A stretch of DNA of 64,000 nt, taken from Bacteroidales bacterium (lineage in GTDB: Bacteria > Bacteroidota > Bacteroidia > Bacteroidales > UBA932). The position numbers and the translations under genes are program-made. The notes beneath the pieces are model-generated. The model saw only the letters and a program-made list of their open reading frames with translations, was not told where the DNA came from and did not search any database. The stretch covers positions 15,112-79,111 of the forward strand of contig JAFXNQ010000034.1 of assembly GCA_017529425.1 (NCBI GenBank), written 5' to 3'. Numbering within the stretch: position 1 is the first letter of the stretch; every line of letters starts with the position of its first letter. Positions 13,040-46,866 of the stretch are shown here, piece by piece.

Positions 13040-13041
13040 CA

Positions 13042-13593: not shown

Positions 13594-13654
13594 GAGTCAA
13601 ATATGATTAAACCCTACTGCGCCCGGAGGGGCCTGTGGACAAAACAAGATCGAT

Positions 13655-19798: not shown

Positions 19799-21409
19799 CT
19801 ATTTATTCTCTATCCAGCGGTCAATCGACTGATAGAGCTGCTTGTCGTAACGCAGATTCACTATGGAAGATGCCTTCTGGAAATAGTATTTTACTGCGAT
19901 ATCCGACTCTATGAGCGGCTTGACCTCATCTTTGACCAGGCGCAGTGCATCCTCCTTGCTGATGTCCAGCTTGGCCTTGAGCGCCTCTATCTCGGCGCGG
20001 CAACTGTCGTAGGTCCCCTCGTATTTGGCAGCCTCCACCAGCTTCTCTATCTCTGCGTCACTGCCGCTCCGCCAGTCAAAGGTCTTGTTCTCGCAGAAGG
20101 CAATGAACTCCTCGTATTCCTCGTCAGAGAGAGAGAACTCGGAGGCCGGGGCGATGGTTTCGTGACGGTTATAGTAATCGATAGCGTATTCGCCTATGAT
20201 ATCGTTGTAAACCAGCGAATATGTCGGGCGGCTGTAACGGGTGTTCTCAACCACGATATCGGGGGTGATGCCGCCGCCATCTTTCACAATGCGACCGGAA
20301 GCAGTCTTGAACTCGTGGGTGAGTGAATCTGGAATCGAGCCGACGCTGCCGTCCTCGTTACGATGGCTGTAATCTATAGCCTGCACGCAACGGCCGCTGG
20401 GTGTATAATACTTGCCGGTGGTCACCTTGAGTGTACCGTTGAAAGCCGTAGGGCGCACCGACTGGATGAGCCCCTTGCCAAAAGAACGGGTGCCGGCTAT
20501 AGTGCCGCGGTCCAGATCCTGGAAGGCGCCCGCCACAATTTCGCTGGCGGAGGCGCTGCCGCTGTTAATCATCACCATCACGGGAATCTCTGTATCAATG
20601 GGATCTGTCTGGGTGCGATATGACACATTCATCCCCCTCATACGTCCTTTTGAAGAGACCACGAGGGTACCTTTGGGCACGAACATCGACACCAGTTTGA
20701 TAGCTTCGTCCATAAGTCCGCCACCGTTGCCGCGCAGGTCAATGATAAGGCGTTTGGCTCCTTGTTTCTTGAGTTCCTGGAAGGCATGTTTGAATTCCGA
20801 ATGCATCCCGGATGTGAAACCGGTGATGGAGATATAACCAATATCGTCACGGAGAATACAGTAATTCTCTATGTTGGAGATATGTATCCGCTCACGCTTT
20901 ACAGTGATATCCGTAACCTCTTTAGTGCGACCCTTGATTACCTTGAATTCCACTTTGCTGCCAGGCTGCCCTTTCATCCGGTTGGAGGACTCCTGTGAGG
21001 TCTCTCCATAAACGCTCTTTCCGTCTATGGCTATTATGCTGTCACCGGGCTGCAGCCCAGCCTTCACCGCCGGACTGTCGGGATAGGGTTCCGTGATGAG
21101 CACCGCCTCGCCCGGACGTTTTTTGATGAGTGAGCCCACACCGCCATATATGCCAGTTGTCATCATCTGCACGTCATCTTCATCCTCTTCAGGGTAATAG
21201 ACCGTATAAGGATCCAGAGATGATAGCATAGCGTTGATGCCGGTAGTCACAAGTTTGCCAAACTGAAGGGTATCTACATAGTTTGCAGAGAGTTGCTTCA
21301 GGATTGAATTCTGTATGTCAAGCGACTTGGCCAGGTCAAAATTGGCACTCTGGGCCGATGCGGTCAGGGAAAAGACCGCCAAAGCGAATATCGCCAATAT
21401 CTTTCTCAT
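19799..21409 (-). CDS. S41 family C-terminal processing peptidase (tail-specific protease)
   Basis: Signal peptide, PDZ region (GLQPGDSIIAIDG), catalytic region GSASASEIVAGAFQD...GTRSFGKGLIQ. Confidence 0.85.
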   Translation of the reverse strand: MRKILAIFALAVFSLTASAQSANFDLAKSLDIQNSILKQLSANYVDTLQFGKLVTTGINAMLSSLDPYTVYYPEEDEDDVQMMTTGIYGGVGSLIKKRPGEAVLITEPYPDSPAVKAGLQPGDSIIAIDGKSVYGETSQESSNRMKGQPGSKVEFKVIKGRTKEVTDITVKRERIHISNIENYCILRDDIGYISITGFTSGMHSEFKHAFQELKKQGAKRLIIDLRGNGGGLMDEAIKLVSMFVPKGTLVVSSKGRMRGMNVSYRTQTDPIDTEIPVMVMINSGSASASEIVAGAFQDLDRGTIAGTRSFGKGLIQSVRPTAFNGTLKVTTGKYYTPSGRCVQAIDYSHRNEDGSVGSIPDSLTHEFKTASGRIVKDGGGITPDIVVENTRYSRPTYSLVYNDIIGEYAIDYYNRHETIAPASEFSLSDEEYEEFIAFCENKTFDWRSGSDAEIEKLVEAAKYEGTYDSCRAEIEALKAKLDISKEDALRLVKDEVKPLIESDIAVKYYFQKASSIVNLRYDKQLYQSIDRWIENK

Positions 21410-21461
21410 ATTTCTTATGACTTATTGTTCACCGGCCCTGATTTGGCAAAAATGATACCAA

Positions 21462-22523
21462 TCAGGCCTCTTTGATGTAGTTTACAATCCATGCGCCGAC
21501 CTCTTTGGTACCATACTTGGCACCGCCGGAAACCTGTATCTCCGGGGTGCGAACATTGGCATCTAGCGATGCAGCCACCGCACGGCGGATCAGCGCGCCC
21601 TCTTCTTTGAGGTCGAAATACTCGAACAGCATGGCTGCGGAGAGTATCTGCGCAAGCGGATTGGCAATATTCAACCCCTTGGCTGCGGGCCAGCTGCCGT
21701 GAACCGGCTCAAAGACGGGAGTATGTTCCCCTGTAGAGGCGCTGGGAAGAAGCCCCATGCTACCTGTGATGCAGCTACCCTCGTCGGTGAGGATATCTCC
21801 GAAAGTGTTCTCAGTAACCATCACATCAAAAAACTTGGGCTCCTGAATCATGCGCATAGAGGCGTTGTCCACATACATGAAATCGGTGGTCACATCGGGA
21901 TACTGAGGAGCCATCTCCTGCGCCACTTTGCGCCACAGACGGCTGGATGCCAGCACATTGGCTTTGTCCACAACGGTGAGGTGGCGGTTGCGGCGGCGGG
22001 CATACTCATAACCAACCTTGAGGATGCGCTCCACCTCGCCACGGGTATAATAGTTTGTGTCGTAGGCCTTCTCGTCGTCCTGATACTTCTCCCCGAAATA
22101 CATGCCGCCGGTGAGTTCGCGGATACAGATGAAATCGGCGCCGCGCACCAGTTCGTCCTTCAGCGGAGAGTTGTGAACAAGGCAGTCGAAGGTCTCGATG
22201 GGGCGGATGTTGGCAAACAGGCCCAGCTTCTTGCGCATGGCCAGCAGACCCTGCTCCGGACGCACCTTGGCTGTTGGATTGTTATCGAAACGGGGGTCGC
22301 CGACTGCGGAGAACAGTACGGCGTCGGCCTCCATACATGTCTGGAAAGTCTCCTCCGGGAACGGGTCACCTACCTTGTCAATGGCATCTGCTCCGCATAC
22401 AGCCTCTTTGAAAGATACTTCGTGCCCGAACTTGTCGCACACCGCCTGCATTACGTCAACACCAACTTTGGATATTTCGGGACCGATACCGTCACCGGGA
22501 AGAACTGCTATCTTAAGTTTCAT
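21462..22523 (-). CDS. leuB: 3-isopropylmalate dehydrogenase
   Basis: [18 protein letters not shown]-terminus. [23 protein letters not shown]...[10 protein letters not shown]. Confidence 0.9.
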
Positions 22524-22529
22524 TGTATA

Positions 22530-24077
22530 TTAGTTTTCGCTTGTTATGATATTCAGCATTTTCATTGTCGCCTTGATGGCCGCCTCGACCTGATCTGCAT
22601 CCAGGCCGCGGGTGTGAATGGTGCGGCCGTTGTAATCCCAGTCGATGCGGGTCTGCACCAGCGCGTCGGTACGTCCTCCGGGAGGGATCGACACGGCGTA
22701 ATCGCTCAGCCAGGGGAACGCGAGCCCCAGATGGTCGCGGAAGATGTGGCGCACGGCACGCACAAAGGCATCGTACTGGCCATCGCCGGAGGCCTGCTCC
22801 TGATAGACCTTACCCTTGACCTCAAGCTTGACGATTGCCGTTGGTTTGAGGCCGTGGGCGGTACTTACCATATAGCTGAGCAACTTGACATTCTCCTGAG
22901 TTATGTCGTGCCCCAGCACGTCGCTTACAATGAACGGGAGGTCGTCCGGGGTCACTGTCTCTTTCTTGTCACCGAGCTCGATTATACGGTCGGTGACGCG
23001 GCGGGTCTGCTCCGGAGTCAGGTCCAGATTCATGTTCTCCAGGTTCTTGAGGACATTTGCCTTACCGCTGTTCTTACCAAGGGCATACTCCCGTTTGCGG
23101 CCGAAGCGCTCCGGCAGAAGGTCGTTGCAATAGAGGTTGTTCTTCTTGTCACCGTCGGCATGGACACCTGCCACCTGAGTGAACACATTGTCGCCCACTA
23201 TGGGACGGTTGGCGGGTATCGGGGTGCTGGAATAGCTCGACACCATTCGGCTTAGCTCGTGAAGGCGGCTTTCGTCTACACCGGTAGCCACTTCAGCCAT
23301 GTCTGCCAGGACTGCCTCCACGCTGGCAAGCGGGGCATTGCCGGCACGCTCGCCGAGGCCGTTCACGCAAGTGTGAACCCCCTGGCAACCCGCCTTGACT
23401 GCGGCCAGGGTATTGGCCACCGCCAAATCATAGTCGTTATGGGCGTGGAAATCGAACCTCAACTCCGGGAACCGGGCCACCATCTGCCCCACAAAATCTG
23501 TCACCTGAGAGGGCGAGAGCACCCCCAGGGTATCTGGCAGCATAAAGCGGCACACTCCGCAACCTTTCATGGATTCGACCATGTTGAAGACATACCCGGG
23601 AGAATTCTTCATCCCGTTGCTCCAGTCTTCGAGATAGAGGTTCACCTCCAGACCCTTGCTATGGGCATAGACGATGGCTTCCCGGATTTGGGCGATGTGC
23701 TCTTCAGGGGTCTTGCCCAGCTGCTCGCGGCAGTGGCGCTCGCTACCCTTGGTGAGCAGGTTCATAACGCGGGCACCGCAACCGGAGATCCAGTCTGCAG
23801 AGAGTGTCCCGTCCACAAATCCGAGCACCTCTACGCGCTCCAGCAAGCCGTTGCGCTCAGCCCACCCGCAAATTTCGCTCACCGAATCCCGCTCCCCTTC
23901 AGAAACGCGGGCCGATGCGACCTCGATGCGGTCGACCTTGGCACTCTGCAGCAGGAAACGGGCGATGAGCAGCTTCTCGTGCGGCACAAAATTGACGCCG
24001 CTGGTCTGCTCCCCGTCCCTCAGGGTCGTGTCCATAATCTCGATCTCCCGCTTCTCCATGATATCTCTTTTATGCAT
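22530..24077 (-). CDS. 2-isopropylmalate synthase / (R)-citramalate synthase family enzyme
   Basis: IMDTTLRDGEQTSGV, IEVASARVSEGE, FHAHNDYDLAVANTLAA, plus a C-terminal LeuA-dimer-type regulatory domain. It sits between leuD and leuB. LeuA and CimA cannot be distinguished by eye. The start could instead be Met7 (24059). Confidence 0.8.
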   Translation of the reverse strand: MHKRDIMEKREIEIMDTTLRDGEQTSGVNFVPHEKLLIARFLLQSAKVDRIEVASARVSEGERDSVSEICGWAERNGLLERVEVLGFVDGTLSADWISGCGARVMNLLTKGSERHCREQLGKTPEEHIAQIREAIVYAHSKGLEVNLYLEDWSNGMKNSPGYVFNMVESMKGCGVCRFMLPDTLGVLSPSQVTDFVGQMVARFPELRFDFHAHNDYDLAVANTLAAVKAGCQGVHTCVNGLGERAGNAPLASVEAVLADMAEVATGVDESRLHELSRMVSSYSSTPIPANRPIVGDNVFTQVAGVHADGDKKNNLYCNDLLPERFGRKREYALGKNSGKANVLKNLENMNLDLTPEQTRRVTDRIIELGDKKETVTPDDLPFIVSDVLGHDITQENVKLLSYMVSTAHGLKPTAIVKLEVKGKVYQEQASGDGQYDAFVRAVRHIFRDHLGLAFPWLSDYAVSIPPGGRTDALVQTRIDWDYNGRTIHTRGLDADQVEAAIKATMKMLNIITSEN

Positions 24078-24666
24078 TGGCCTTTTCCCACGCCTCGATC
24101 TTTGATTTGCTCTCCAGAAGAAAATCGATGTCGTCGAGGCCGTTCATAAGGCAGTATTTCTTGTAACCGTTCAGGTCAAAATGTTCGCTGCGGCCGGTGG
24201 CCAGGTTGGTGACTGTCTGAGCGGGCACATTAACCTCAACCTCGGTGGCCGGGTTGGCCTTGATGCTTGCAAACAGCTCTGCGAGAAAATCTTCGCTCAC
24301 AGTGACGGGCAGCACAAAGTTGTTCAGCTCGTTGTTGCGGTGGATATCGGCAAAGAAGCTCGAAATCACCACGCGGAAGCCGTATCCCGCGATGGCCCAT
24401 GCGGCGTGTTCGCGGCTGCTGCCGTTACCGAAGTTTTTGCCTGCTACCAGAATGCACCCGCTGTATGTAGGGTCGTTCAGTACGAAATTCTGGTTGGGCG
24501 TGCCATCGGCGTTGTAGCGCCAGTCGCAGAACAGGTTGTCACCAAAGAATTTCTCGTCGCGGGTGGTAGCCTTCAGAAAGCGGGCGGGGATTATCTGGTC
24601 GGTATCCACATTCTCCAGAGGGAGGGGGACACATGTACTCTTGATTATGTTAAACTTCTGTTTCAT
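24070..24666 (-). CDS. leuD: 3-isopropylmalate dehydratase small subunit
   Basis: 198 aa. VPLPLENVDTDQIIPARFLK, GKNFGNGSSREHAAWA. Confidence 0.9.
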   Translation of the reverse strand: MKQKFNIIKSTCVPLPLENVDTDQIIPARFLKATTRDEKFFGDNLFCDWRYNADGTPNQNFVLNDPTYSGCILVAGKNFGNGSSREHAAWAIAGYGFRVVISSFFADIHRNNELNNFVLPVTVSEDFLAELFASIKANPATEVEVNVPAQTVTNLATGRSEHFDLNGYKKYCLMNGLDDIDFLLESKSKIEAWEKANA

Positions 24667-24672
24667 GGCGGC

Positions 24673-26067
24673 TTACATTAAGGTTCTGGGATCTGTGACA
24701 ACACCGGTAACGGCTGCGGCTGCGGCAGTCAAAGGACTGGCCAGCACGGTGCGTGCACCAGGACCCTGACGTCCCTCGAAGTTGCGGTTGGAGGTAGAAA
24801 CCGAGAGCTTCCCTGCAGGAATCTTGTCGTCGTTCATGGCCAGGCAGGCGCTGCAGCCGGGTTGGCGGATTTCGAAACCGGCCTCCTCGAGTATTTTGTC
24901 CAGGCCCTCGCTCTCTATCTGCTCCTTAACCATCCAGCTGCCTGGTACCAGCCAGCAAACCACTCCGGGAGCCTTTTTGCGCCCTGCGGCGATGGAGGCG
25001 AATGCCCGGAAATCTTCTATACGGCCGTTGGTGCAACTCCCGCAGAACACGTAGTCGACCTTCTTGCCCAGCAACTGCTCTCCGGGAGCGAAGCTCATGT
25101 AATTGAGCGAGCGCAGGAATGAAGCCTGACCGCTCTCGGGCACACTGGCGAGCGCCGGGATTGAACTTTCGATACCCATGCCCATACCCGGATTGGTACC
25201 ATAGGTCACCATCGGGGTGATGTCCTCTGCCTTGTATACGATTTCCCGGTCAAACACTGCGTCGTCGCCACTGCGGAGGGTCTTCCAATATTCAACCGCC
25301 TTGTCCCACTCGGCCCCCTTGGGAGCATGCTCGCGCCCCTTGATGTATTCGAACGTCTTCTCGTCGGGAGCGACAAAGCCGCCGCGGGCACCCATTTCTA
25401 TGGAGAGGTTGCAAAGTGTAAGGCGTCCCTCCATACTGAGGTCGCGAACCACGCTGCCGGCATACTCGACAAAATAACCCGTAGCACCGCTTGTGGACAT
25501 CTTGCTCATGATGTACAGAGCCACATCTTTTGCTGTAACTCCCTTTGCCAGTTTACCTTCTACACTGATACGCATGGATTTGGGCTTCTGCTGCAGGATG
25601 CACTGAGAAGCCATCACCATCTCCACCTCGGAAGTTCCGATTCCGAAGGCAACCGCACCCATGGCACCGTGGGTCGAGGTGTGGGAGTCGCCGCACACGA
25701 TTGTCATGCCGGGCAGCGAAAGGCCTCTCTCGGGCCCTACGACGTGGATAATGCCGTTGCGCTTGTCCAGCATCCCGTAGTGGGTCAGGCCAAATTCGGC
25801 GGCATTTGCGGCCAGGGTGTCGACCTGTTTCTTGGAGACGGGGTCCTCGATGGGTTTGTCTTGGTCGTGGGTGGGTGTATTATGGTCCGGCATGCATACG
25901 ATCTGCTGCGGGCGGAGAGGCTTGATGCCTCGCTCCCGCATACCGTCAAATGCCTGTGGTGTAGTCACTTCATGGCAGTACAGCCGGTCTATGTAGAGCT
26001 GTGTGGGGCCGTCCTCAACTATCTGGACGACGTGCTTGTCCCAAATCTTATCGAAAAGTGTGTTCAT
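24673..26067 (-). CDS. leuC: 3-isopropylmalate dehydratase large subunit
   Basis: [12 protein letters not shown] start (the ORF track extends to 26091). Aconitase-family motifs [36 protein letters not shown]. Confidence 0.9.
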
Positions 26068-26174
26068 CGCATTTGGTCTAATGGAGTGCAAAGGTTTGAA
26101 TTTTTAACCATTTAACCAATTTTTCCGATTACAAGTTATCCGGTTGACTTGCCCCAGAAAACCTATTTTTATTA

Positions 26175-26182
26175 TATCTTTG
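26175..26182 (+). promoter_or_regulatory. Candidate -7 box (TAtcTTTG) dedicated to the NRPS gene
   Basis: TATCTTTG lies 21 nt upstream of ATG 26204, in the 136-nt divergent gap shared with leuC. Confidence 0.45.
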
Positions 26183-26203: not shown

Positions 26204-27668
26204 ATGAAAACAACACCCTATAGCACTGTTCTTGAGAAATTCCGCCGGAATGTGGAGATGTTCCCGGACAATACCGCAATCGTATTTGAAAACATAAGTC
26301 TGACATATCGTGAGGTTGACCGGCTTTCGGACAATCTGGCGGCATATATCGAATCGCAAGTCCCGCCCAAAAGCGTGGTGGGCATTATGCTGGGGCGCAA
26401 CGAATATATGATGCTGGCGCCGCTGGGCGCACTCAAGGCGGGATGCGCATATCTCCCTCTGGATCCCTCATACCCGCCCGAGCGACTGGCATTCATGATG
26501 AAGGACGCCGGCGCACGGATGCTGCTGGCCGACGAGGATCTTCTCCCCATATTGAAAGAGTATGACGGCCCGGTGCTCAAGACGGAGGATATCCGGAAAC
26601 TGCACCCCGGAAAACCCTCGGCACAACCGGCACCGGAAGATCTTTTCCTTTTGCTGTACACCAGCGGCACTACCGGCACCCCCAAGGGCTGTATGCTCTC
26701 CCATCAGAACGTATTCATCTTCTGTGACCACCATCGGGAGAACGTAGGATTCGACAATAACACACGCATGACCGGGTATGCCAGTTTCGGATTCGACGCC
26801 TTCGCCTCAGACATGTATACCTCCATCATCTCCGGCTCGACACTGTACATAATCCCGGAGCGCATCCGGCTCAACCTTGCCGCCCTGCATTCTTATTTTG
26901 AGGAGAACGGCATCACCCACTGTTTCATGACCACTCAGGTCGCCACCCAGTTCGCCATCAATTATCCCGAATGCAAAGGGCTCAAAGTGATGTATACTGG
27001 CGGCGAAAAGATGTCTTCCTTCCCGCTTCCAAAATATAGGCTCTTCAACTGCTACGGCCCCACGGAGTGTATGTGTTACGTTGTCTGCGAAGAGGTGAAG
27101 GTGCAGGAGGAGAACATCCCCATCGGGCTTCCCTTGCCCGGCATCCATACCTACATCGTGGATAAGGACGGCCATCAGGTGCCGCAAGGAGAGAACGGTG
27201 AGCTCTGGATTGCCGGCCTGCAGGTCGGCATGGGCTACCTCAACAGACCCGACAAGACGGCCGAGGCATTCCTCGAGAATCCATTCGAGAAAGACCCCGA
27301 TTACGCCCGTGTATACCGCACCGGCGACATCGTGCGTTACCGCCCCGATGGCAAGATAGAATATGTCGGCCGCAAGGACGGTCAGGTAAAAATCCGCGGA
27401 TTCCGTATCGAACTCAAGGAGGTAGAAGCCGTTATCCGCGAGTTCCCCGGGATCAAGGATGTCACTGTGCAGGCCTTTGACGAGCCCGGCGCAGGCGCAG
27501 GCAAGTTCCTGGCCGCCTACATAGTGGGCTCCGGAGAGATCAATATCCAGGAGCTCAACGATTTCATCGCCTCCAGGAAACCTCCATACATGGTCCCTGC
27601 CGTCACCATGCAGATAGACGCCATCCCCCTGAATATTAACCAGAAGGTGGATGTGAAGGCCCTTCCCA
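26204..27668 (+). other. NRPS adenylation domain A1 (approximate bounds)
   Basis: Runs from the N-terminal FPDNTAIVF to the A10 motif NQKVDVKALP. No domain precedes it. Confidence 0.8.
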
Positions 27669-30600
27669 GGCCCGAGCCCCGCAACCATAAGCAAGAGACC
27701 CATGTGGCACCTTTGAACGTTCTGGAAGAAGAGATCAGCGCCCTCATCAGGGAGAGCGTGGGCATCAGCGGCTTCGGCCTGACGGACCCCCTGTATTACA
27801 GCGGCCTGTCGTCCCTGAGCGCCCTTCGCCTGGCCACCGAACTGTACAACCGCTACGGGCTGGATCCCGACATGAACACATTTGTGAAGACGGCCAGCCT
27901 CCAGAGCATAGAAAACGACATTCTCAAGATATTGATGGCCAAGGACGCGGCTCAGGAAACGGAGACGGAAAGTGCTGCCGACGAGCCGCAGGAACTTACT
28001 TTCCAGCAGACCGGTCTCTACCTGGACTGCGTCAGAAACCCCTCTTCTACCGCCTATAACCTGCCTTTCATCCTCACTTTCCCCGAAGGGACCGGAGGCG
28101 ATGACCTGAAGAGAGCCCTGCGCGCAGTGCTGGAGGCACACCCCGCCGTGCTGGGCCATTTTGAGCAGAAAGACGGCAAGGTGTTCCTGATGCCCGGCAG
28201 GATGGGAGAGGATATTCCATACACCACCCTCAAGAGCGAGGAGGAGTTCCTCAAGCTGAAGGAGACCTTCATGCAGCCGTATAACCTCGGCACAGGGCCG
28301 CTCTACTGCTTCAATATTGTGAAAACGCCCTTCAAGCTGCGGCTGATGGGCGATATTCACCATCTGGTGTTCGACGGCCGCTCTTACGACGTATTCCTCG
28401 AGCAGCTCACCGCCGCCATGGAGGGGAAAGCTCCCGAGATGGAGAGTTATACCTACTTCCAGTACGCCAAGGACCAGCAGGCATATCAAGACAGTCCCGA
28501 ATTCAAGGAGGCGGAGGATTTCTTCACCTCCCAGCTGGCCGCCAAAGAAGACGAGACCGGCGTGCTGCCCGACAAGAAGCCCCAGGAAGACACCGTGGGC
28601 CACGAATTGTGGCTGAGGAAAAAAATCGGATGCGACGTGACGGCACGCTGCCACGCACTGGGAATCTCCCCGGCCAGCTATTTCCTCGGAGCCGCCTTCG
28701 TGACGGTGAGCGCATTCTCAGGCCAGCAGAAGGTATTCATGTGCACCGTGGCCAACGGCCGCAATGATATGCGCAGTTCCAATACCTTCGGTATGTTCGT
28801 GAACACCATCGCACTGGCTGGCGAGGTTGCCGGCCAGCAGGCCGACGAATTCCTCAAGGAGACCGACCGCAACTTCTCCAAGGCGCTCTCTTACCAGAAT
28901 TATCCCTTCGCCCGCGTCTCTTCTGCATTCGATTTCCATCCCGCGGTGATGCTGGCATACCAGGTGGGTCTGGTAGAGAAATACAGCATCGGCGGCAAAG
29001 TATTGGAGGACGAACTGCTCACCCAGGACACCCCCAAGTTCCCCCTGAGCATCTTCATAGAAGGGACCGAGGATGCTCCAGAAATCGCCCTGGCCTATGA
29101 TGACAGCCTTTATAACGAGCCGCTTATACAGAGCTTTGCCGATACGCTGGAGACCGTGTGCCGCGGCCTTCTCAAAGACGGCCCTCTTACAGGCATCCAG
29201 TTCGTTGACGGGCCTATTCTGCAGCAGCTGGACAGTTTCAACAATTACTCCCAGGAGGTGGATCTGAGCCGTACGGTGGTGGATTTGTTCCGGGAACAGG
29301 CTCGGGCTACTCCAGATGCCGCCGCCGTGCTCTTTGACGGTAAAACCATAAGCTACGGCGAGCTGGACCGCTATACGGATGCCCTGGCCGCCAAGATTCA
29401 AAGCCTCGGCCTCGGCGAAGAAGATGTTGTGTCCGTGCTCATCAACCGCAACGCATGGATGACCAAAGCCTCCCTTGCGGCAATGAAGGCTGGCTGCGCA
29501 TACCAGCCGCTCGATCCTTCTTATCCCGCCGAGCGCCTCAACTTCATGATAAAGGATGCCGGGGCCAGGCTCCTCATTGCCGAACCCGGGCTGGTGCCCC
29601 TGGTGTGCGACTACAAGGGCCCCGTCCTCACCACAGACAATCTGGAAGACCTTCCCGAGGCAACCGTACTGCATGGTGGCCCCAAGCCGGAGAATATGTA
29701 TATCCTGCTCTATACCTCCGGATCCACCGGCAAGCCCAAAGGGTGCATGCTGGAACACCATAACCTCGTGAACTTCTGCGCATGGTACCGCGAGTATTTC
29801 GATCTCCACCCGGGAGACCGCGTGGCGGCATTCGCAAGCTACGGTTTCGACGCCAACATGATGGACCAATACCCGGCCCTGACCAGCGGCGCCTGCGTAT
29901 GCATCATCCCGGAAGAGGTGCGCCACGATCTGAAAGCGCTGGATGCCTTCATCACCGACAACGGCGTCACCCACAGTTTCATGACTACCCAGGTGGGTGT
30001 GTTGTACGCCCGCAACTTCCCCGACAACCCGTCGCTGAAGCACCTGTCCACCGGCGGCGAGAAACTCGTCTCGATGGCTCCCCCTTCTTATGCATTCTAC
30101 AATGGCTACGGCCCCACCGAATGCACCATCTTCACCACGATATTCCGCGTGCTGGAGCGCGAAGACAATATCCCTATCGGACATCCCCTGTCCAACGTCC
30201 TGCTGTACGTGGTCGATCGCCAGATGAGGCGCCTGCCCGTGGGCGCGGCCGGAGAACTGCTCATCAGCGGTGCCGGAGTGAGCCGCGGCTACCTCAACAA
30301 CCCTGAGAAGACCGCAGAGAGCTATATCGAGAATCCCTTCGTGAAAGGGATGCGCGCTTACCATTCGGGAGACATCGTCCGCTATCGCAGTGACGGCAAC
30401 ATTGAATTCGTGGGGCGCAAAGACCGTCAGGTCAAGATCCGCGGCTTCCGCATAGAACTCAAGGAGGTCGAAGAGGTGATCAGGGAGATACCGGACGTAC
30501 AGGATGTCACTGTGCAGGCCTTCGACTCCCCTTCTGGCGGCAAGTTCCTGGCTGCATACGTGGTACTCAAGGAGGGGACCCTCGACGCCAAGGCCGCTGC

Positions 30601-32176
30601 CGACTTCATCCGCGAGCGCAAGCCGCCTTATATGGCTCCCGCCGCATGGGTACAGTTGGATGCCATCCCGCTCAACGTCAACCAGAAGGTGGACGTGAAG
30701 GCGCTGCCACCGGCAACACCCACCGCCACAGAAGATTACGTTGCCCCTGTTGGCGAGACCGAGACGGCACTCTGCAACATCTTTGCATCGCTGCTGGGAG
30801 TCGATCGCGTGGGTGCCATCGAGTCGTTCTTTGACCTGGGCGGAACCTCGCTGATGGTGACCAACGTCATGGTCGAGGCGGAGAAGCAGGGGCTGCATTT
30901 CGCATATTCCGACGTGTTCTCCCATCCTTCTGCCAGGGCGCTGGCCGCATTCCTCAACGGAGGACAGACTCAGCAGCAGGAGGACAGCAACATCACAGGC
31001 TACGACTATACCGACATCGACCTTCTCCTCGAAGAGAATAATCTGGATTCGTTCCGTAACGGAGAGGGCCTCAGCCTCGGACGCAATATCCTGCTGGCCG
31101 GCGCCACCGGTTTCCTGGGCATCCACGTGCTCAAGGAGTTGCTCGATAGCACCGGTCCCGATACCACCATCTGGTGCCTGCTGCGCGGCAAGGGCAGCCT
31201 TACCCCTGAACGGCGCCTGACGGAGATGCTGGTATATTATTTTGAAAAAGACTACCGCAACCTCCTCGGAAAGCGCATCCGCGTTGTCGAAGGCGACATC
31301 ACCCGCCCAGAAAGCTTCGCTTCGCTCGAAGGGATAGACATGGTGTTCAACTGCGCCGCCAATGTCAAGCATTTCTCAAAGGGTACCGACATCGAAGACA
31401 TCAACTACGGAGGTGTAAAGAACCTCGTGGAGTTCTGTGAGAAGAGGGATGCATACCTCGTGCAGGTATCTACCGAGAGCGTTGGCGGCCTCACCCCCGG
31501 CTCCGTACCCGACACACTCACCGAGCAGATGCTCTTCTTTGGACAGCTCACCGACAACCAGTACGTCCATTCCAAGTTCCTGGCAGAAAGGATTATCCTG
31601 GAGCACATGGCCCAGGGGCGGCTCAAAGCCAAGATCATGCGCGCCGGTAACCTGTCGCCCCGCGCCGAGGACGGTGAATTCCAGGTGAACATGAACTCCA
31701 ATGCCTCCATGGGCCGCCTCAAAGCCTTCAAGATGCTGGGAGCATGTCCCTACCACATGCTGGAGGGAGAGATAGAATTTACCCCTATCGACCAGGCCGC
31801 ACACGCCATGGTGCTGCTGGCCCGGACTCCCCTGAAGAACTGTGTATTCAACGTCTCCAACAACCACATCGTCCCGATGGACGACGTGCTTACCCGTCTG
31901 GAAAAAATTGACGGGAAACCATTGGAGTACGTTGAGATGCCTGAATTCCTACAGAGGATGGAGGCCGCCCAGACAGATCCTGCAAAGGCCCGCATACTCG
32001 CACCGCTGATAGCTTATCAACAGTCTGTCGCCGAACAGGAGGGTGTGGAAACCCTCGCATCGACCGCATTCACCATGCAGGTCCTCCATCGCCTGGGCTT
32101 CCGTTGGAACCACACCTCCAGCGAGTATGTAGATCTGATTTTCGAGATGCTCCGGACGCTGCAGTATTTTGATTAA
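26204..32176 (+). CDS. Bimodular nonribosomal peptide synthetase, domain order A-T-C-A-T-R (terminal thioester reductase), AusA-like
   Basis: 1990-aa ORF. A1: LLYTSGTTGTPKG (26651-26689), NCYGPTE, YRTGD, GRKDGQVKIRGFRIELKEVE. T1: YYSGLSSLSAL. C: HHLVFDG (28358-28378). A2: LLYTSGSTGKPKG (29705-29743), NGYGPTE, YHSGD, GRKDRQVKIRGFRIELKEVE. T2: FFDLGGTSLM. R: LLAGATGFLG (Rossmann) and YVHSK. Confidence 0.95.
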   Translation: MKTTPYSTVLEKFRRNVEMFPDNTAIVFENISLTYREVDRLSDNLAAYIESQVPPKSVVGIMLGRNEYMMLAPLGALKAGCAYLPLDPSYPPERLAFMMKDAGARMLLADEDLLPILKEYDGPVLKTEDIRKLHPGKPSAQPAPEDLFLLLYTSGTTGTPKGCMLSHQNVFIFCDHHRENVGFDNNTRMTGYASFGFDAFASDMYTSIISGSTLYIIPERIRLNLAALHSYFEENGITHCFMTTQVATQFAINYPECKGLKVMYTGGEKMSSFPLPKYRLFNCYGPTECMCYVVCEEVKVQEENIPIGLPLPGIHTYIVDKDGHQVPQGENGELWIAGLQVGMGYLNRPDKTAEAFLENPFEKDPDYARVYRTGDIVRYRPDGKIEYVGRKDGQVKIRGFRIELKEVEAVIREFPGIKDVTVQAFDEPGAGAGKFLAAYIVGSGEINIQELNDFIASRKPPYMVPAVTMQIDAIPLNINQKVDVKALPRPEPRNHKQETHVAPLNVLEEEISALIRESVGISGFGLTDPLYYSGLSSLSALRLATELYNRYGLDPDMNTFVKTASLQSIENDILKILMAKDAAQETETESAADEPQELTFQQTGLYLDCVRNPSSTAYNLPFILTFPEGTGGDDLKRALRAVLEAHPAVLGHFEQKDGKVFLMPGRMGEDIPYTTLKSEEEFLKLKETFMQPYNLGTGPLYCFNIVKTPFKLRLMGDIHHLVFDGRSYDVFLEQLTAAMEGKAPEMESYTYFQYAKDQQAYQDSPEFKEAEDFFTSQLAAKEDETGVLPDKKPQEDTVGHELWLRKKIGCDVTARCHALGISPASYFLGAAFVTVSAFSGQQKVFMCTVANGRNDMRSSNTFGMFVNTIALAGEVAGQQADEFLKETDRNFSKALSYQNYPFARVSSAFDFHPAVMLAYQVGLVEKYSIGGKVLEDELLTQDTPKFPLSIFIEGTEDAPEIALAYDDSLYNEPLIQSFADTLETVCRGLLKDGPLTGIQFVDGPILQQLDSFNNYSQEVDLSRTVVDLFREQARATPDAAAVLFDGKTISYGELDRYTDALAAKIQSLGLGEEDVVSVLINRNAWMTKASLAAMKAGCAYQPLDPSYPAERLNFMIKDAGARLLIAEPGLVPLVCDYKGPVLTTDNLEDLPEATVLHGGPKPENMYILLYTSGSTGKPKGCMLEHHNLVNFCAWYREYFDLHPGDRVAAFASYGFDANMMDQYPALTSGACVCIIPEEVRHDLKALDAFITDNGVTHSFMTTQVGVLYARNFPDNPSLKHLSTGGEKLVSMAPPSYAFYNGYGPTECTIFTTIFRVLEREDNIPIGHPLSNVLLYVVDRQMRRLPVGAAGELLISGAGVSRGYLNNPEKTAESYIENPFVKGMRAYHSGDIVRYRSDGNIEFVGRKDRQVKIRGFRIELKEVEEVIREIPDVQDVTVQAFDSPSGGKFLAAYVVLKEGTLDAKAAADFIRERKPPYMAPAAWVQLDAIPLNVNQKVDVKALPPATPTATEDYVAPVGETETALCNIFASLLGVDRVGAIESFFDLGGTSLMVTNVMVEAEKQGLHFAYSDVFSHPSARALAAFLNGGQTQQQEDSNITGYDYTDIDLLLEENNLDSFRNGEGLSLGRNILLAGATGFLGIHVLKELLDSTGPDTTIWCLLRGKGSLTPERRLTEMLVYYFEKDYRNLLGKRIRVVEGDITRPESFASLEGIDMVFNCAANVKHFSKGTDIEDINYGGVKNLVEFCEKRDAYLVQVSTESVGGLTPGSVPDTLTEQMLFFGQLTDNQYVHSKFLAERIILEHMAQGRLKAKIMRAGNLSPRAEDGEFQVNMNSNASMGRLKAFKMLGACPYHMLEGEIEFTPIDQAAHAMVLLARTPLKNCVFNVSNNHIVPMDDVLTRLEKIDGKPLEYVEMPEFLQRMEAAQTDPAKARILAPLIAYQQSVAEQEGVETLASTAFTMQVLHRLGFRWNHTSSEYVDLIFEMLRTLQYFD
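27700..27940 (+). other. NRPS carrier (T/PCP) domain T1 (approximate bounds)
   Basis: The core is SGLSSL in place of GG(H/D)SL. The predicted phosphopantetheinyl Ser537 codon is 27812-27814. Confidence 0.65.
27985..29250 (+). other. NRPS condensation domain (approximate bounds)
   Basis: LTFQQTGLYLDC (C1-like) and HHLVFDGRS (C3 HHxxxDG, 28358-28378). Confidence 0.8.
29265..30708 (+). other. NRPS adenylation domain A2 (approximate bounds)
   Basis: Runs from VVDLFREQARATPDAAAV to NQKVDVKALP. Strongly paralogous to A1. Confidence 0.8.
30735..30960 (+). other. NRPS carrier domain T2 (approximate bounds)
   Basis: Canonical FFDLGGTSLM. Ser1549 codon is 30848-30850. Confidence 0.8.
31085..32173 (+). 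other. NRPS terminal reductase (SDR/TD) domain
   Basis: GATGFLG at 31100-31120, NCAANV, YVHSK (YxxxK). Confidence 0.8.
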
Positions 32177-32240
32177 AGAGGCTCTTGCCGCCTAAGCGAC
32201 CACTTTGGTGTCGGGGTCAAGGAAGATACGGGAGATATCT

Positions 32241-32543
32241 CTATTCGAATTCAAAAAGTGAAATAAAACCGGTAAGTTCCAGAACGTCGCGGATCACTTC
32301 GTTGACGTTTTTGAGCACTACCCGCGAACCGACCGACTTGGCCTGTTTCAAAATGGCAAGCAAAACCCTCAGGCCGCTGGACGATATGTATTCCAACTCT
32401 GTGCAGTCTATCATTATATCCTTGCCTTTGCTATCGAGCAGTGGCGCAAGCGCCTTCTCAGTCTCTTTCGCAGCGGCTGTATCCAGTTCTCCCGACAGCG
32501 TAGCTATCAATCTCTCGTCTGTTTCTTGAATAGTGGTTGTCAT
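32241..32543 (-). CDS. STAS-domain anti-sigma-factor antagonist (SpoIIAA-like)
   Basis: ATG at 32543 (the ORF track starts at TTG 32597). LSGELDTAAA...IDCTELEYISSSGLRVLL carries the conserved phospho-Ser context. Confidence 0.7.
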   Translation of the reverse strand: MTTTIQETDERLIATLSGELDTAAAKETEKALAPLLDSKGKDIMIDCTELEYISSSGLRVLLAILKQAKSVGSRVVLKNVNEVIRDVLELTGFISLFEFE

Positions 32544-32613
32544 AATATCGATTTCGTTAAAGTTATTCAAAGATATTGTTTGTTTTTGATAACACAAAAC
32601 AATAAAATAATGT

Positions 32614-32621
32614 TAAATTTG
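32614..32621 (+). promoter_or_regulatory. Candidate -7 box (TAaaTTTG) for malQ and the starch PUL
   Basis: TAAATTTG lies 25 nt upstream of ATG 32647, in an AT-rich divergent region. Confidence 0.45.
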
Positions 32622-32646
32622 TACAAATAGGCAGCTAATTAACAAT

Positions 32647-35076
32647 ATGATACATCTTTCGATAGAATTCAACACCGTGTGGGGAGAGCGCCTCGCCGTA
32701 AGGGCGGGCTCCAGGCTCCACGAAATGCGTTATACACATAACGGCTGCTGGGAGGCCGATTTAAAGAATACAGATATCCGCAACGGGCAGGAGTATTCCT
32801 ACGAACTGCTCTGCGACGGCAAGACCGTGCGCCGCGAGTGGCGCCGGCACAAACTGCGCTATCCCCGGGGAACCAGGACCATCTCCGTGCGCGACCGCTG
32901 GATAGACCGCCCCGCCAACTCGGCATTCTGGGCATCGGCATTCAAGGATGTCATTTTCGGCCGTAAGGTATCTGCCGCCAAGGCGCTCTCTGGCAACATC
33001 GTGCTGCGCACGGCGGCTCCCGAAATCAGACCTGGGCAGGTACTGGCAATTGCCGGCAGCGGCAGTGCGCTGGGCAACTGGGCCACAGCCACTCCGCTGG
33101 GCGACAACTTCTTCCCCTGGTGGGAAACCGGCCTCACTGCAGAAGGCCCCTTCGAATATAAATATGTTATTGCCGACAGCGACTCAGGCAAAATCCTCCT
33201 CTGGGAAGAGGGGCCCAACCGCGTGTGCGATGCCTTGCCCGAAGATAATGCCGTATTGGTTATCGAAGACAGCCTTCCCCGGCTCAAACCGATGCCCTGG
33301 CGCGGCGCCGGCGTGGCGATTCCCGTTTTCTCCATCCGCACCCGGGAGAGTTTTGGCGTGGGTGAGTTCCACGACATCAAGAAGCTGGTAGACTGGGCGG
33401 TAGCCACCGGACAGAACTTTATCCAGCTGTTGCCGGTAAACGACACCAGTATGACCGGCACCTGGCAGGATTCCTACCCGTACAATGCCGTCAGCTCGTT
33501 TGCCCTCCATCCGCAGTTTATCCATCTGCCCGACGCCGGAGTCAAGGCCGACAAGGCCTACAACACTCTGCAGCAAAAGCTCAACGCCCTGGACAAGATA
33601 GACTACGAAATGGTCAACGGCGAGAAGATGCGCCTGCTGCACAAACTCTTTGACAAACAGCGCGGGAAGATAGTCGCCACCTCCGCATACCAGGCTTTTG
33701 TGGCGGCCAACAATTTCTGGCTCCTCCCTTACGCCGTGTTCTGCTGCCTGCGCGACGAGCGCGGCACCGTGGACTGGCGCAAATGGGGCGACGAAGCCGG
33801 GTATAGCCGCGAAAAGGCAGAACAGTATGCCGCAGCACACCCCGCCGGGGTGGATTTCTGGTGCTGGCTCCAATATCTGCTGGACAAGCAGCTTAAAGAT
33901 GCCGTCGCATACGCCCACACCCATAGGGTAGCCATCAAGGGCGACCTGCCCATCGGCGTGAGCCCCGTGAGCGCCGATGCCTGGACCAACCCCGACCTGT
34001 TCAACCTGGACATGCAGGCGGGTGCACCTCCCGATGCCTTCAGTGCCGACGGCCAGAACTGGGGCTTCCCTACCTATAACTGGGACCGCATGGCTGGGGA
34101 TGACTTCGCATGGTGGCGGGCGCGCCTGGGCAAGATGAGCGAATATTTTGATGCATACCGCATTGACCATATACTGGGCTTCTTCCGCATCTGGGAGATT
34201 CCCGCACGTTACAAGAGCGGCCTGATGGGCCACTTCGCCCCCGCCCTGCCATACAGCGAAGATGAGTTGCGCAAGATAGGATTCGACCTCTCCGGCGGAA
34301 GGTTCGTAACTCCGCCCGCAGACGATGAGACAGATGTGCTTTTTGTGGAAGATCCCAGAAAGAAGGGATATTGGCACCCACGCATCTCGGCCCAGTTCAC
34401 CAAGACCTATGCTCAACTGGACGGCTCACTGAAGGAGCGCTTCAACGCCCTCTACAACGACTTCTTCTACCATCGCCACGACGATTTCTGGCGGGAGAGC
34501 GCCATGCGCAAGCTCCCTTCGCTGCTGCGCAGCAGCGCTATGCTCAGCTGCGGCGAGGACCTGGGAATGATTCCGGGTTGCGTGGCCTCCGTAATGGATG
34601 AGCTGAATATCCTCAGCCTTGAAATACAGAGGATGCCCAAGGATACCAGCGTGGATTTTGCCGACCCGGCACGCTACCCTTACTACTGTGTATGCGCCAC
34701 CGGCACCCATGACACCAGTCCGCTAAGGGCATGGTGGGAAGAGGACCGCAACCTCACCCAGCGCTTCTACAACGAGATGATGCATGCCAATGGGGGCGCC
34801 CCCTGGTTCTGCGAACCATGGGTTGCCGAGTCTATCATCCGTGCACACCTCTACTCCCCGGCTATACTGGCTATACTGCCTCTGCAGGACTATCTGGCAG
34901 TGGACGGCAGGGTACGATACAGCGGTGATCCAGCCGACGAGCGTATCAACATCCCCGCCAATCCCCGCCACTATTGGCGCTACAGGATGCATCTCACGCT
35001 GGAAGATATGATTGCCGACAGCGACCTCTGCAACCGCATACGAGATATGATATCCGATGCCGCAAGGGGCAAATAG
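32647..35076 (+). CDS. malQ: 4-alpha-glucanotransferase (amylomaltase, GH77) with N-terminal starch-binding (CBM20-like) modules
   Basis: 809 aa. GH77 motifs YRIDHILGFFRIWEIP, CGEDLGMIP, GTHDTSPLRAWW. The N-terminal roughly 200 aa have a beta-sandwich repeat pattern (WGERLAV...GSALGNW). Confidence 0.85.
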   Translation: MIHLSIEFNTVWGERLAVRAGSRLHEMRYTHNGCWEADLKNTDIRNGQEYSYELLCDGKTVRREWRRHKLRYPRGTRTISVRDRWIDRPANSAFWASAFKDVIFGRKVSAAKALSGNIVLRTAAPEIRPGQVLAIAGSGSALGNWATATPLGDNFFPWWETGLTAEGPFEYKYVIADSDSGKILLWEEGPNRVCDALPEDNAVLVIEDSLPRLKPMPWRGAGVAIPVFSIRTRESFGVGEFHDIKKLVDWAVATGQNFIQLLPVNDTSMTGTWQDSYPYNAVSSFALHPQFIHLPDAGVKADKAYNTLQQKLNALDKIDYEMVNGEKMRLLHKLFDKQRGKIVATSAYQAFVAANNFWLLPYAVFCCLRDERGTVDWRKWGDEAGYSREKAEQYAAAHPAGVDFWCWLQYLLDKQLKDAVAYAHTHRVAIKGDLPIGVSPVSADAWTNPDLFNLDMQAGAPPDAFSADGQNWGFPTYNWDRMAGDDFAWWRARLGKMSEYFDAYRIDHILGFFRIWEIPARYKSGLMGHFAPALPYSEDELRKIGFDLSGGRFVTPPADDETDVLFVEDPRKKGYWHPRISAQFTKTYAQLDGSLKERFNALYNDFFYHRHDDFWRESAMRKLPSLLRSSAMLSCGEDLGMIPGCVASVMDELNILSLEIQRMPKDTSVDFADPARYPYYCVCATGTHDTSPLRAWWEEDRNLTQRFYNEMMHANGGAPWFCEPWVAESIIRAHLYSPAILAILPLQDYLAVDGRVRYSGDPADERINIPANPRHYWRYRMHLTLEDMIADSDLCNRIRDMISDAARGK

Positions 35077-35137
35077 AGAAGTTTTTTTGGATTATTAACT
35101 CAGATTCTTTACTTTCGTTACCTTTCAATACGAAAAA

Positions 35138-36475
35138 ATGCAAAATCGTAACCTCTCAAATAAGCAATTGATCAATCTGAACTTCGGGTATCTTGGAGTC
35201 CAGATTGCATATGCCCTGCAAAGCGCCAATATTTCACGAATCTTCGCGACTCTTGGAGCAGACCCGCACCAGCTGAGCTTCTTCTGGATTCTCCCGCCGC
35301 TGATGGGCATGATTGTCCAGCCACTTATAGGCAAGTGGTCAGACCGTACCTGGTGCCGCATGGGTCGGCGCAAACCTTACTTGCTGGTGGGCGCAATAAT
35401 CGCCGTGCTGGTAATGGCCTTCCTTCCCAACGCCGGCAGCCTGCATTTCTCCACCAGAGTCTTCCTGGGTCTGAACATGGTCATGTGGTTCGGTCTTTTC
35501 TCGCTCATATTCCTGGATACCAGCATTAACGTGGCAATGCAGCCCTTCAAGATGATGGTGGGCGATCTGGTCAATGAGCAGCAGAAAGCCAAGGCCTATT
35601 CCATACAGAGTTTCCTGTGCAACGCCGGCAGCCTGATCGGCTACCTGCTGCCGATATTCTTCACCTGGATAGGCATCGCCAACTCTGCACCGGAGGGAAT
35701 TGTTCCCGCATCGGTGATCACATCGTTCTATGTGGGAGCCGTGATCCTCATCGTTTGCGTGCTTTACACCTTCCTGAATGTCAAAGAGATGCCGCCGGCA
35801 GAGTATGCCGAGTTCCACGGGATTGACACGGAGAAGACAGAAGGGAAGGGAGAAGGTCTCTTCGCCCTGCTCTTCAAGGCTCCCAAGATTTTCTGGACAG
35901 TGGGTCTGGTGCAGTTTTTCTGCTGGGCCGCGTTCCTCTATATGTGGACCTATACCAACGGCACCCTCGCGTTCAACTGCTGGAACGGCGCCACCGACAC
36001 CGCATCTGCCGCATACCAGGCGGCCGGCAATTGGGTGGGTGTCGTATTTGCCGTACAGGCGGTGGGTTCGATACTGTGGGCGCTGGTACTGCCCCGCTTC
36101 AAAAACCTCAAGACCGCCTACATCGTCAGTCTGCTGATTGGTGCTGTGGGCTTCATTGCCGTGGCGTTTATCCACGATAAGTATCTTGCCTGCGCAGCAT
36201 ACTTCCTTATCGGCGCTGCATGGGCGGCGATGCTGGCACTCCCCTTCACGCTGCTTACCAACGCGCTTGAGGGCAATCCTTATATGGGCTCTTACCTGGG
36301 GCTGTTCAACGGCACCATCTGCCTGCCGCAGATTGTGGCGGCCGCGACGGGAGGCCTTGTGCTCAAGGCTGTCGGCGGCACGCAGAGCTCTATGCTGGTT
36401 ATGGCGGGCATCTACCTGATAATAGGTGCCGCGGCAGTGTTGCTCGTGAAAGTGAAACCAACAACCAACCAATAA
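35138..36475 (+). CDS. MFS/GPH-family sugar:cation symporter (maltose/maltodextrin transporter candidate)
   Basis: 12-TM-type ORF. GKWSDRTWCRMGRRKPYLL (RxGRR loop of sucrose/maltose symporter-like proteins). Lies between malQ and susC. Confidence 0.75.
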   Translation: MQNRNLSNKQLINLNFGYLGVQIAYALQSANISRIFATLGADPHQLSFFWILPPLMGMIVQPLIGKWSDRTWCRMGRRKPYLLVGAIIAVLVMAFLPNAGSLHFSTRVFLGLNMVMWFGLFSLIFLDTSINVAMQPFKMMVGDLVNEQQKAKAYSIQSFLCNAGSLIGYLLPIFFTWIGIANSAPEGIVPASVITSFYVGAVILIVCVLYTFLNVKEMPPAEYAEFHGIDTEKTEGKGEGLFALLFKAPKIFWTVGLVQFFCWAAFLYMWTYTNGTLAFNCWNGATDTASAAYQAAGNWVGVVFAVQAVGSILWALVLPRFKNLKTAYIVSLLIGAVGFIAVAFIHDKYLACAAYFLIGAAWAAMLALPFTLLTNALEGNPYMGSYLGLFNGTICLPQIVAAATGGLVLKAVGGTQSSMLVMAGIYLIIGAAAVLLVKVKPTTNQ

Positions 36476-36498
36476 TAAGTTTAACTAATCAACATCTG

Positions 36499-39537: not shown

Positions 39538-39548
39538 TGAAAGAGCGT

Positions 39549-41117: not shown

Positions 41118-41166
41118 TAACTAATATCGATAATATAACAATCAACTAATCTTTAACACTTTTACA

Positions 41167-42633: not shown

Positions 42634-42696
42634 TCACACTCTCAATACTTTTGGCCTGCAAGCCCCTGATACGGACTTGCAGGTCCCATTTAAAGG

Positions 42697-44637: not shown

Positions 44638-44656
44638 TCTTGATAACCAACCGATT

Positions 44657-46862: not shown

Positions 46863-46866
46863 CGTT

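Follow-up and report, generated by a model that had tools for sequence, protein, structure and literature searches.

What does a two-module nonribosomal peptide synthetase (NRPS) encoded on the chromosome of a rumen Bacteroidales bacterium make, and what decides when it is made? We addressed this question for a 64,000-nucleotide stretch of contig JAFXNQ010000034.1 (assembly GCA_017529425.1, positions 15,112 to 79,111 of the forward strand; hereafter the window), in which an initial annotation of the DNA letters had picked out an NRPS gene at 26204–32176 on the plus strand and described it as stand-alone and as having exactly the architecture of the Staphylococcus aureus synthetase AusA. We judge it fairly probable, from domain content and motifs, that the gene encodes a functional two-module NRPS of rumen Bacteroidales that releases a dipeptide aldehyde with a free amine. 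The synthetase alone would be one more uncharacterized member of a family already counted by genome-mining surveys; the most interesting content of the locus is the conserved pairing of such synthetases with a sensor/STAS cassette, together with a natural series of deletions in that cassette. Related loci in other genomes that were compared with the window carry L-numbers (L055, L016, and so on).

Domain organization of the synthetase

The open reading frame (ORF) is uninterrupted over 5,973 nt (1,990 codons plus stop), and Pfam gives the domain order A1-T1-C-A2-T2-R (A, adenylation; T, carrier; C, condensation; R, reductase), such that both the intact frame and the order first proposed are borne out. 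The protein is 100% identical to a database twin, MBR3744347.1, from a Bacteroidales metagenome-assembled genome (MAG), which is annotated as "amino acid adenylation domain-containing protein." The Pfam matches comprise two AMP-binding (2.1e-150), two AMP-binding_C, and two PP-binding domains, a single Condensation domain (PF00668; residues 597–992; 2.5e-42) placed between T1 and A2, and, at the C-terminus, NAD_binding_4 (residues 1631–1869; 1e-32) in an NAD_binding_4/Epimerase-type stretch of residues 1629–1884; these domain models confirm the C and R assignments made earlier from motifs.

All domains lie on the plus strand. A1 spans 26234–27646 (approximately residues 11–481, from the second Pfam stretches, with boundaries placed by offset from A2) and carries the A3 motif LLYTSGTTGTPKG at 26651–26689, and T1 spans 27731–27919 (approximately residues 510–572, Pfam PP-binding), with SGLSSL at 27800–27817 and the predicted phosphopantetheine attachment site, Ser537, encoded at 27812–27814. 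The condensation domain occupies 27992–29179 and harbors the catalytic HHLVFDG at 28358–28378. In the second module, A2 (29288–30688; residues 1029–1495 by Pfam) carries the A3 motif LLYTSGSTGKPKG at 29705–29743, followed by T2 (30767–30955; residues 1522–1584, the best PP-binding stretch) with LGGTSL at 30836–30853 and the corresponding Ser1549 encoded at 30848–30850. The thioester reductase domain R closes the protein (31088–32173; residues 1629–1990), with GATGFLG at 31100–31120 and YVHSK at 31562–31576 (Tyr1787, Ser1790, and Lys1791). The initial annotation had placed every motif that it quoted (A1, SGLSSL, HHLVFDG, A2, LGGTSL, GATGFLG, and YVHSK) exactly; A5, A7, A8, and A10 motifs are likewise found in both A domains.

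The N-terminus of the protein lies ≈10 residues ahead of A1, which leaves no room for a starter condensation domain, and Pfam detects no epimerization, methyltransferase, thioesterase, or second Condensation domain in the synthetase, as had been stated from the first. The solved structures nearest to the C domain are those of TycC6, TomB, LgrA module 2, and Txo1/2, which we take to be of the L-to-L elongation type, a type that fits with the missing epimerization domain.

Adenylation pockets and candidate substrates

Both A domains were aligned by HMMER with the first A domain of LgrA (LgrA-A1), which A2 matches with 361 bits, and the specificity codes were read off these alignments. The A1 code reads DASFYGCCYK and the A2 code DAMFSGGIFK; the LgrA-A1 code obtained from the same alignment is DGLYIGGIMK, to which A2 is identical or conservatively replaced at nine of ten positions. 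LgrA-A1 activates valine. The A2 code is identical in 58 of the 60 proteins of ≈1,990 residues and in 44 of the 52 of ≈2,400 residues (see below), and the A1 code varies among the family at positions 239 and 299. Both pockets are hydrophobic and free of charged side chains; as substrates, aliphatic or other hydrophobic amino acids are likely. Codes taken from a MAFFT alignment with a GrsA segment as reference were discarded: these put Thr at position 278 by way of an arbitrary gap, where the HMMER alignment to LgrA gives Phe.

Terminal reductase and predicted release chemistry

The T2-R region finds its best solved-structure match in the PCP-R didomain of Mru_0351 from Methanobrevibacter ruminantium (6vtj; 3.7e-87) and its second-best solved reductase in the AusA PCP-R (4f6l; 3e-33), and the R domain also matches MxaA (4u7w; 3.2e-12) and Mycobacterium tuberculosis (Mtb) Nrp (4dqv; 3.4e-06). 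The YxxSK residues of R align with Y3988/S3991/K3992 of 6vtj, and the alignments to 6vtj and AusA-R, with motifs intact, uphold the earlier assignment of a terminal reductase of the short-chain dehydrogenase/reductase (SDR) type. AusA-R has been described as the sole NRPS reductase of solved structure that produces an aldehyde (PMC8024701).

Because a starter condensation domain is absent, the N-terminus of the product should be free, and because it is free we prefer an AusA-like release scheme. A 4′-phosphopantetheinyl transferase (PPTase) encoded elsewhere in the genome would prime both carrier domains, whereupon T1 (Ser537) would receive an amino acid from A1 and T2 (Ser1549) a second from A2, and the C domain would join both into an L,L-dipeptidyl thioester on T2. 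R would then cleave this thioester reductively with NAD(P)H to give a dipeptide aldehyde, the free amine of which could attack the aldehyde to form a cyclic imine (dihydropyrazinone). A pyrazinone would arise by oxidation only where oxygen is available, and in the anoxic rumen the aldehyde/dihydropyrazinone pair would be the likely species. The AusA amino aldehyde cyclizes to an imine and is then oxidized to a pyrazinone (PMC12153313; PMC8210680). Neither a pyrazinone nor a dipeptide aldehyde characterized from the rumen came up in a literature search. For the class of product, our best inference is a free-amine dipeptide aldehyde cyclizing to a (dihydro)pyrazinone, and we concur with the initial annotation that the compound itself cannot be named from the sequence.

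The alcohol-making NRPS reductases MxaA-R and Mtb-R have the same fold and motifs and are both matched by the R domain, and the A2-T2-R part matches the MxcG model with 607 bits, as would fit a reductase that reduces twice (four electrons) and releases a dipeptidyl amino alcohol, with no aldehyde or pyrazinone formed. Such an outcome nevertheless appears unlikely, as the nearest characterized reductase is the aldehyde-forming AusA-R, matched ≈20 orders of magnitude better than MxaA-R, and as a nascent aldehyde beside a free α-amine would, by analogy with AusA chemistry, cyclize fast and so escape further reduction.

Several points weigh against the dipeptide aldehyde that we favor. The extent of reduction (two versus four electrons) is not yet predictable from structure or sequence (PMC8024701), a point that also counts for the amino alcohol. 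The A1 and A2 codes equal no confidently assignable code, and position 278 is alignment-dependent. Pfam finds no PPTase, transporter or exporter, MbtH-like protein, or tailoring gene among the 46 ORFs of the 64-kb window. Finally, the synthetase reaches 959.8 bits on the AusA model (NF047350), the equivalog cut-off of which is 2,500 bits.

A common family of rumen synthetases

A scan of GTDB species representatives retrieved 54 related loci, all in rumen or gut MAGs and nearly all in rumen or herbivore-gut Bacteroidales MAGs from cattle, sheep, goat, yak, buffalo, deer, and reindeer; the nearest labeled relatives are two loci assigned to Candidatus Cryptobacteroides, a Bacteroidales genus. Dozens of MAGs of rumen Bacteroidales contain orthologues of 74–89% identity. 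Three length classes are apparent in the best 120 protein clusters: ≈1,990 residues (60 clusters, 74–100% identity), ≈2,410–2,430 residues (≈50 clusters, 59–68% identity), and ≈3,040 residues with three modules (8 clusters, 42–50% identity). The sisters of ≈2,410–2,430 residues are C-A-T-C-A-T-R proteins with an extra N-terminal C domain that retains an intact FHHIIADG, and the window NRPS sits in a whole clade without a starter C domain. More distant relatives from rumen Firmicutes (L044, L047, L048, L049, L050, and L054) share 34–35% identity with the NRPS. An already characterized, near-identical synthetase was looked for in protein clusters, NCBIfam, and the literature, and none turned up.

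A survey of the rumen counts 5,346 NRPS clusters, of which 934 are in Bacteroidaceae (PMC8241843). Set beside the 54 loci and the 60 clusters of ≈1,990 residues, this number contradicts the earlier statement that NRPS genes are rare in Bacteroidales; the family is a common, uncharacterized one of rumen Bacteroidales and not a rarity.

The longer sisters bear on the product as well. An A-T-C-A-T-R gene is directly followed by a C-A-T-C-A-T-R gene in L002, L007, and L028, in some MAGs, such as RGIG1112 (L025 and L027), the two types lie on different contigs, and the A2 code is common to both NRPS types. If the window NRPS were likewise to cooperate with a C-A-T-C-A-T-R paralogue elsewhere in its genome, the product would be N-acylated or a longer reduced peptide. 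We hold such cooperation to be highly improbable: each protein ends in a reductase, and thus a release step, of its own, no second NRPS is found within the 64-kb window, and most loci have the 1,990-residue gene without a tandem partner. The free-amine dipeptide aldehyde remains our preferred product.

A conserved sensor/STAS cassette beside the synthetase

The description of the NRPS as stand-alone does not hold. Convergent with it, 64 nt 3′ of its end, lies a minus-strand gene (STASb, 32241–32543) that encodes a single-domain STAS protein of 100 residues, deposited as MBR3744348.1. This protein matches Pfam STAS (2.2e-19) and the NCBIfam anti-sigma-factor antagonist model TIGR00377 (78.4 bits versus a cut-off of 53.45), carries an ISSSGL motif with a putative phosphorylatable serine, and shares 93–97% identity with the STASb proteins of L055 and L056 and 83% with that of L016. 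A tblastn survey of neighbors had returned a small ORF 3′ of the NRPS with conserved counterparts next to the NRPS of over 20 other loci. A plus-strand ORF at 32185–32529 (114 residues) was considered as the gene and rejected as an antisense artifact, the minus frame showing 63–81% identity versus 53–72%; the minus-strand STAS frame is conserved down to an E value of 4e-55, and the plus-strand frame is weaker.

In orthologous loci, STAS genes are accompanied by a gene for a sensor with Cache, SpoIIE, and HATPase_c_2 domains. Both genes stand beside the NRPS in 23 of the 26 informative loci (those with a short NRPS and an upstream flank of 3 kb or more), the exceptions being L009 and L014, which have no cassette, and the window, which has STAS alone and is thus left with a remnant. 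The sensor is one fused phosphatase-kinase protein of 690–698 residues; in L016 (698 residues), it consists of an N-terminal transmembrane segment, a Cache/PDC domain, a second hydrophobic segment, a phosphatase domain of the SpoIIE (PP2C) type, and a HATPase_c_2 kinase domain resembling RsbW. Its best NCBIfam match is SiaA, at 57 bits versus a cut-off of 700.

The arrangement takes two forms. In L016-type loci, a divergent two-gene operon lies ≈80 nt upstream of the NRPS, with the sensor gene first and the STAS gene second. In L055 and L056, the NRPS occupies the same chromosomal site as in the window, between the leu operon and a glycoside hydrolase family 77 (GH77) gene, and is followed by STASa (106 residues), STASb (100 residues), and the sensor (690 residues), all on the opposite strand, and then by GH77. 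Being upstream and divergent in the first type and downstream and convergent in the second, the pairing of NRPS and cassette survives rearrangement.

Distant NRPS relatives also have a STAS gene nearby, namely L044 (Lachnospiraceae, in the order NRPS-STAS-SpoIIE), L036 (a divergent Bacteroidales locus), L046 (Bacteroidaceae), and L052 (Kiritimatiellia). In M. ruminantium, an anti-sigma-factor antagonist and two serine phosphatases surround the two-module NRPS gene mru0068, and another antagonist/phosphatase set lies beside a PPTase gene (PMC2812497). Beyond this 2010 genome paper, a literature search returned nothing on a link between partner switching and NRPSs.

Several further features of the cassette were observed in passing. 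The sensors of L006, L012, L015, L017, L030, and L032 (gene at approximately 6143–7950) are shorter and without the Cache/PDC segment, matching L016 residues ≈1–41 and 276–697 only (≈321–697 only in L012), such that the input domain of the cassette varies among species. The tandem NRPS pairs extend over 8001–21209 in L002 and 8001–21275 in L007, with a match at 8001–16867 in L028, and have one sensor/STAS cassette upstream of each pair; the NRPS that the cassette directly adjoins is of the starter-C type in L020, L021, and L035.

How might such a cassette act? A periplasmic ligand would set the balance of phosphatase and kinase activities of the sensor, this balance would set the phosphorylation state of the STAS protein, and the STAS protein would control the expression or the activity of the NRPS. 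SiaABCD and SypE-SypA are partner-switching systems with enzymes, not sigma factors, as their direct targets. STAS-only proteins that act on non-sigma targets have been reviewed (PMC8256260), and an Anabaena glycosyltransferase provides an example (PMC13555669). The conserved cassette offers no candidate for an output partner, whether anti-sigma factor, sigma factor, or target enzyme, except the synthetase itself.

We put forward, as a tentative idea that is doubtful at present, that the sensor and STAS proteins form a signal-responsive switch dedicated to two-module NRPSs with a terminal reductase across gut anaerobes, acting by direct contact between STAS protein and synthetase and not through a sigma factor. 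Such a switch may extend over Bacteroidota, Bacillota, possibly Kiritimatiellia, and methanogenic archaea. Two points count against any regulation of the NRPS by the cassette, and so against this part of our main reading of the locus: L009 and L014 have the NRPS without any cassette, and the functional link between cassette and NRPS, plausible as it is, is drawn from gene neighborhood only.

Decay of the cassette in this genome

Relative to L055, BLASTN and alignment reveal two clean deletions in the window. The first removed 275 bp of STASa (L055 16047–16321) and left ≈44 nt of its 3′ end at 32192–32235 on the minus strand. The second, of 2,097 bp, took essentially the whole Cache-SpoIIE-HATPase_c_2 sensor gene, with window 32235–32565 corresponding to L055 16322–16652 and window 32567–32759 to L055 18750–18947. 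The scar of this deletion (32544–32575, minus strand) holds the last ≈22 nt of the sensor gene just upstream of the STASb ATG, joined at approximately 32565–32567 to the former sensor promoter region, in which a TAnnTTTG box is found at 32568–32575. No homologue of the sensor, whether PP2C phosphatase or HATPase_c_2 kinase, was found by tblastn elsewhere in the window. The same junctions and spacers recur in at least ten independent assemblies from different sequencing runs, and the deleted arrangement is therefore a real allele, not an assembly artifact. In L014, in which the NRPS is 85% identical and the synteny is the same, the entire cassette is lost.

The surviving STASb would now lie behind the old sensor promoter, and control by an external signal has probably been lost; without its cognate kinase and phosphatase, STASb would be locked in one state. 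If the cassette is indeed a dedicated switch, the series from the full cassette of the L055 type, through STASb only in the window, to none in L014 would represent a pathway that escapes signal control and turns constitutive.

Selection on the synthetase and its putative promoter

The loss of the sensor and of one STAS gene raises the question of whether the NRPS is itself silent or non-functional here, a leftover of a cluster with a decayed regulatory cassette; the housekeeping character of the flanks (leu operon and starch-utilization locus) and the lack of a PPTase or transporter gene in the window would be in keeping with this. Pairwise Nei-Gojobori comparisons with L056 (89% identity), L055 (88%), and L014 (85%) give a dN/dS of 0.10 overall and 0.05–0.14 per domain in the six domains, and the NRPS is under purifying selection. 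This low ratio and the intact motifs argue for a working enzyme. We consider a silent gene quite unlikely, since the 5,973-nt ORF keeps all its catalytic motifs, since dN/dS is ≈0.10 also in the comparison with the cassette-less L014 (a pairwise average, compatible with very recent inactivation), since the promoter box described below is conserved, and since the same allele comes from many independent samples.

A TAnnTTTG box (TATCTTTG; 26175–26182, plus strand) of the Bacteroidetes −7 type is located 21 nt 5′ of the NRPS ATG, and a box of this type is found at the same position in the orthologues L055, L056, L016, L001, L003, L031, and L025. The box to which the initial annotation had drawn attention is thus present and conserved; its role as a promoter of the gene's own is consistent with these data and goes no further, because TAnnTTTG is just slightly enriched across the window (36 occurrences versus 23 ± 5 expected). 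A sigma-70-type scan, which is unsuited to Bacteroidetes, gave counts at or below chance (promoter-like, 4 versus 4.0 expected; terminator-like, 1 versus 6.5). The GC content across the NRPS (0.54–0.58) is the same as that of the flanks, and composition gives no signal of horizontal transfer.

Chromosomal surroundings

Upstream of the NRPS lie a divergent leuC-leuD-leuA-leuB operon and an S41 peptidase gene, and elsewhere the window contains ribosomal protein genes, thrA/asd, and tRNAs, as in ordinary chromosome; an Rfam search of the window returned two tRNAs only. The proteins of the leu and S41 flank (19799–26091) are 94–100% identical to those of L014, compared with just 85% for the NRPS, which thus evolves much faster than its neighbors, with dN/dS still ≈0.1. 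Immediately 3′ of the NRPS/STAS pair, a plus-strand starch-utilization locus (32647–45985) encodes GH77 with CBM20, an MFS transporter, SusC, SusD, SusE/F, a SusG-like GH13 with CBM58, and a second GH13; relative to L014, GH77 is just 81% identical and the adjoining MFS protein 98%.

The ribosomal cluster that follows (46052–50115) comprises only rplC-rplD-rplW-rplB-rpsS-rplV-rpsC, with tRNA-Ala(ggc) in the place of rpsJ and no rplP after it, an arrangement that is either a split S10 operon or a mis-join in the MAG. After it, on the minus strand (50248–52465), come convergent genes for a secG-like protein (50248–50625), lptE, and a sigma-54 activator; a plus-strand ORF at 50215–50673 looks like an antisense artifact. 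Further plus-strand genes include an ORF of 564 residues with a TTG start (52477–54171) that has no Pfam match at E ≤ 1e-4, and a set at 9211–14158 encoding an AraC-family regulator, an alpha/beta hydrolase, a cyclophilin-like protein, an Amidohydro_2-ABM monooxygenase fusion, and two Flavodoxin_4 proteins, possibly a small operon for catabolism or detoxification. On the minus strand, 14629–15510 encodes a lone Fic/DOC-family protein of 293 residues amid housekeeping genes, and 17817–19793 encodes a 658-residue protein in which type I 3-dehydroquinase is fused to EPSP synthase, covering two shikimate steps, and which is also present in L055.

Significance

Should the predicted chemistry hold, free-amine dipeptide aldehydes are made by one of the most abundant uncultured lineages of rumen Bacteroidales. 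This reactive class of microbiome metabolite, which in S. aureus and the human gut is tied to protease inhibition and host/microbe signaling, would thereby be extended to the ruminant forestomach and to Bacteroidota. The locus would also provide concrete genes with which to test effects on rumen proteolysis, protozoa, and the host epithelium. A handle on the trigger of production is offered by the conserved pairing with sensor and STAS genes and by the deletion variants that occur naturally.

Comparison with known systems

AusA (PznA), the aureusimine/phevalin synthetase of S. aureus, has the same published order, A1-T1-C-A2-T2-R (PMC12153313). Both enzymes are terminated by an SDR reductase, the AusA model is the best-scoring named NCBIfam model for the window NRPS, and in both a free N-terminal amine would permit closure of the pyrazinone ring. 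To this extent the claim of an architecture exactly that of AusA stands; it is qualified by the score noted above (960 versus 2,500 bits), by the profile match, which covers positions 411–2367 of 2373 and leaves ≈410 N-terminal model positions unmatched, and by the lack of an adjoining AusB-type PPTase. P0063, a sister with a starter C domain, fits the AusA model from position 251 on, such that the N-terminal part of AusA is just partly matched even there. The two systems also differ in phylum, habitat (anoxic rumen for the window NRPS), and A-domain codes. As read from its sequence, the window NRPS resembles AusA and the gut dipeptide-aldehyde synthetases in every visible feature, yet it is no AusA equivalog.

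The gut-commensal dipeptide-aldehyde NRPS family and the ruminopeptin (rup) system of Ruminococcus bromii are, like the window NRPS, two-module, reductase-terminated, and found in gut anaerobes. Most members of the gut family described by Guo et al. in 2017 are reportedly from Clostridia, and many are said to have a starter C domain and hence N-acyl products. The clade studied here differs in belonging to Bacteroidales, in lacking the starter C domain, and in its ruminant rather than human gut habitat. The products of the gut-commensal family and rup are dipeptide aldehydes that have been isolated as pyrazinones and inhibit proteases (PMC8210680; PMC12327764).

In M. ruminantium M1, which shares the rumen habitat, mru0068 is a two-module NRPS with a neighborhood like that of the orthologous Bacteroidales loci. 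The M1 synthetases differ in being archaeal, in the four modules of Mru_0351, for which no product is known (PMC8024701), and in the MatE exporter at the M1 loci, which is absent in the window.

Finally, the cassette of the orthologous loci shares a PP2C phosphatase, an RsbW-like kinase, and a single-domain STAS protein with the enzyme-controlling partner switches SiaABCD of Pseudomonas aeruginosa, SypE-SypA of Vibrio fischeri, and the HenR module of Anabaena. It differs from these in its periplasmic Cache/PDC input and in family scores far below the cut-offs, and the window differs further in that kinase and phosphatase are both absent. In the loci that retain it, a fused kinase-phosphatase acting on one STAS protein would follow the logic of SypE-SypA.

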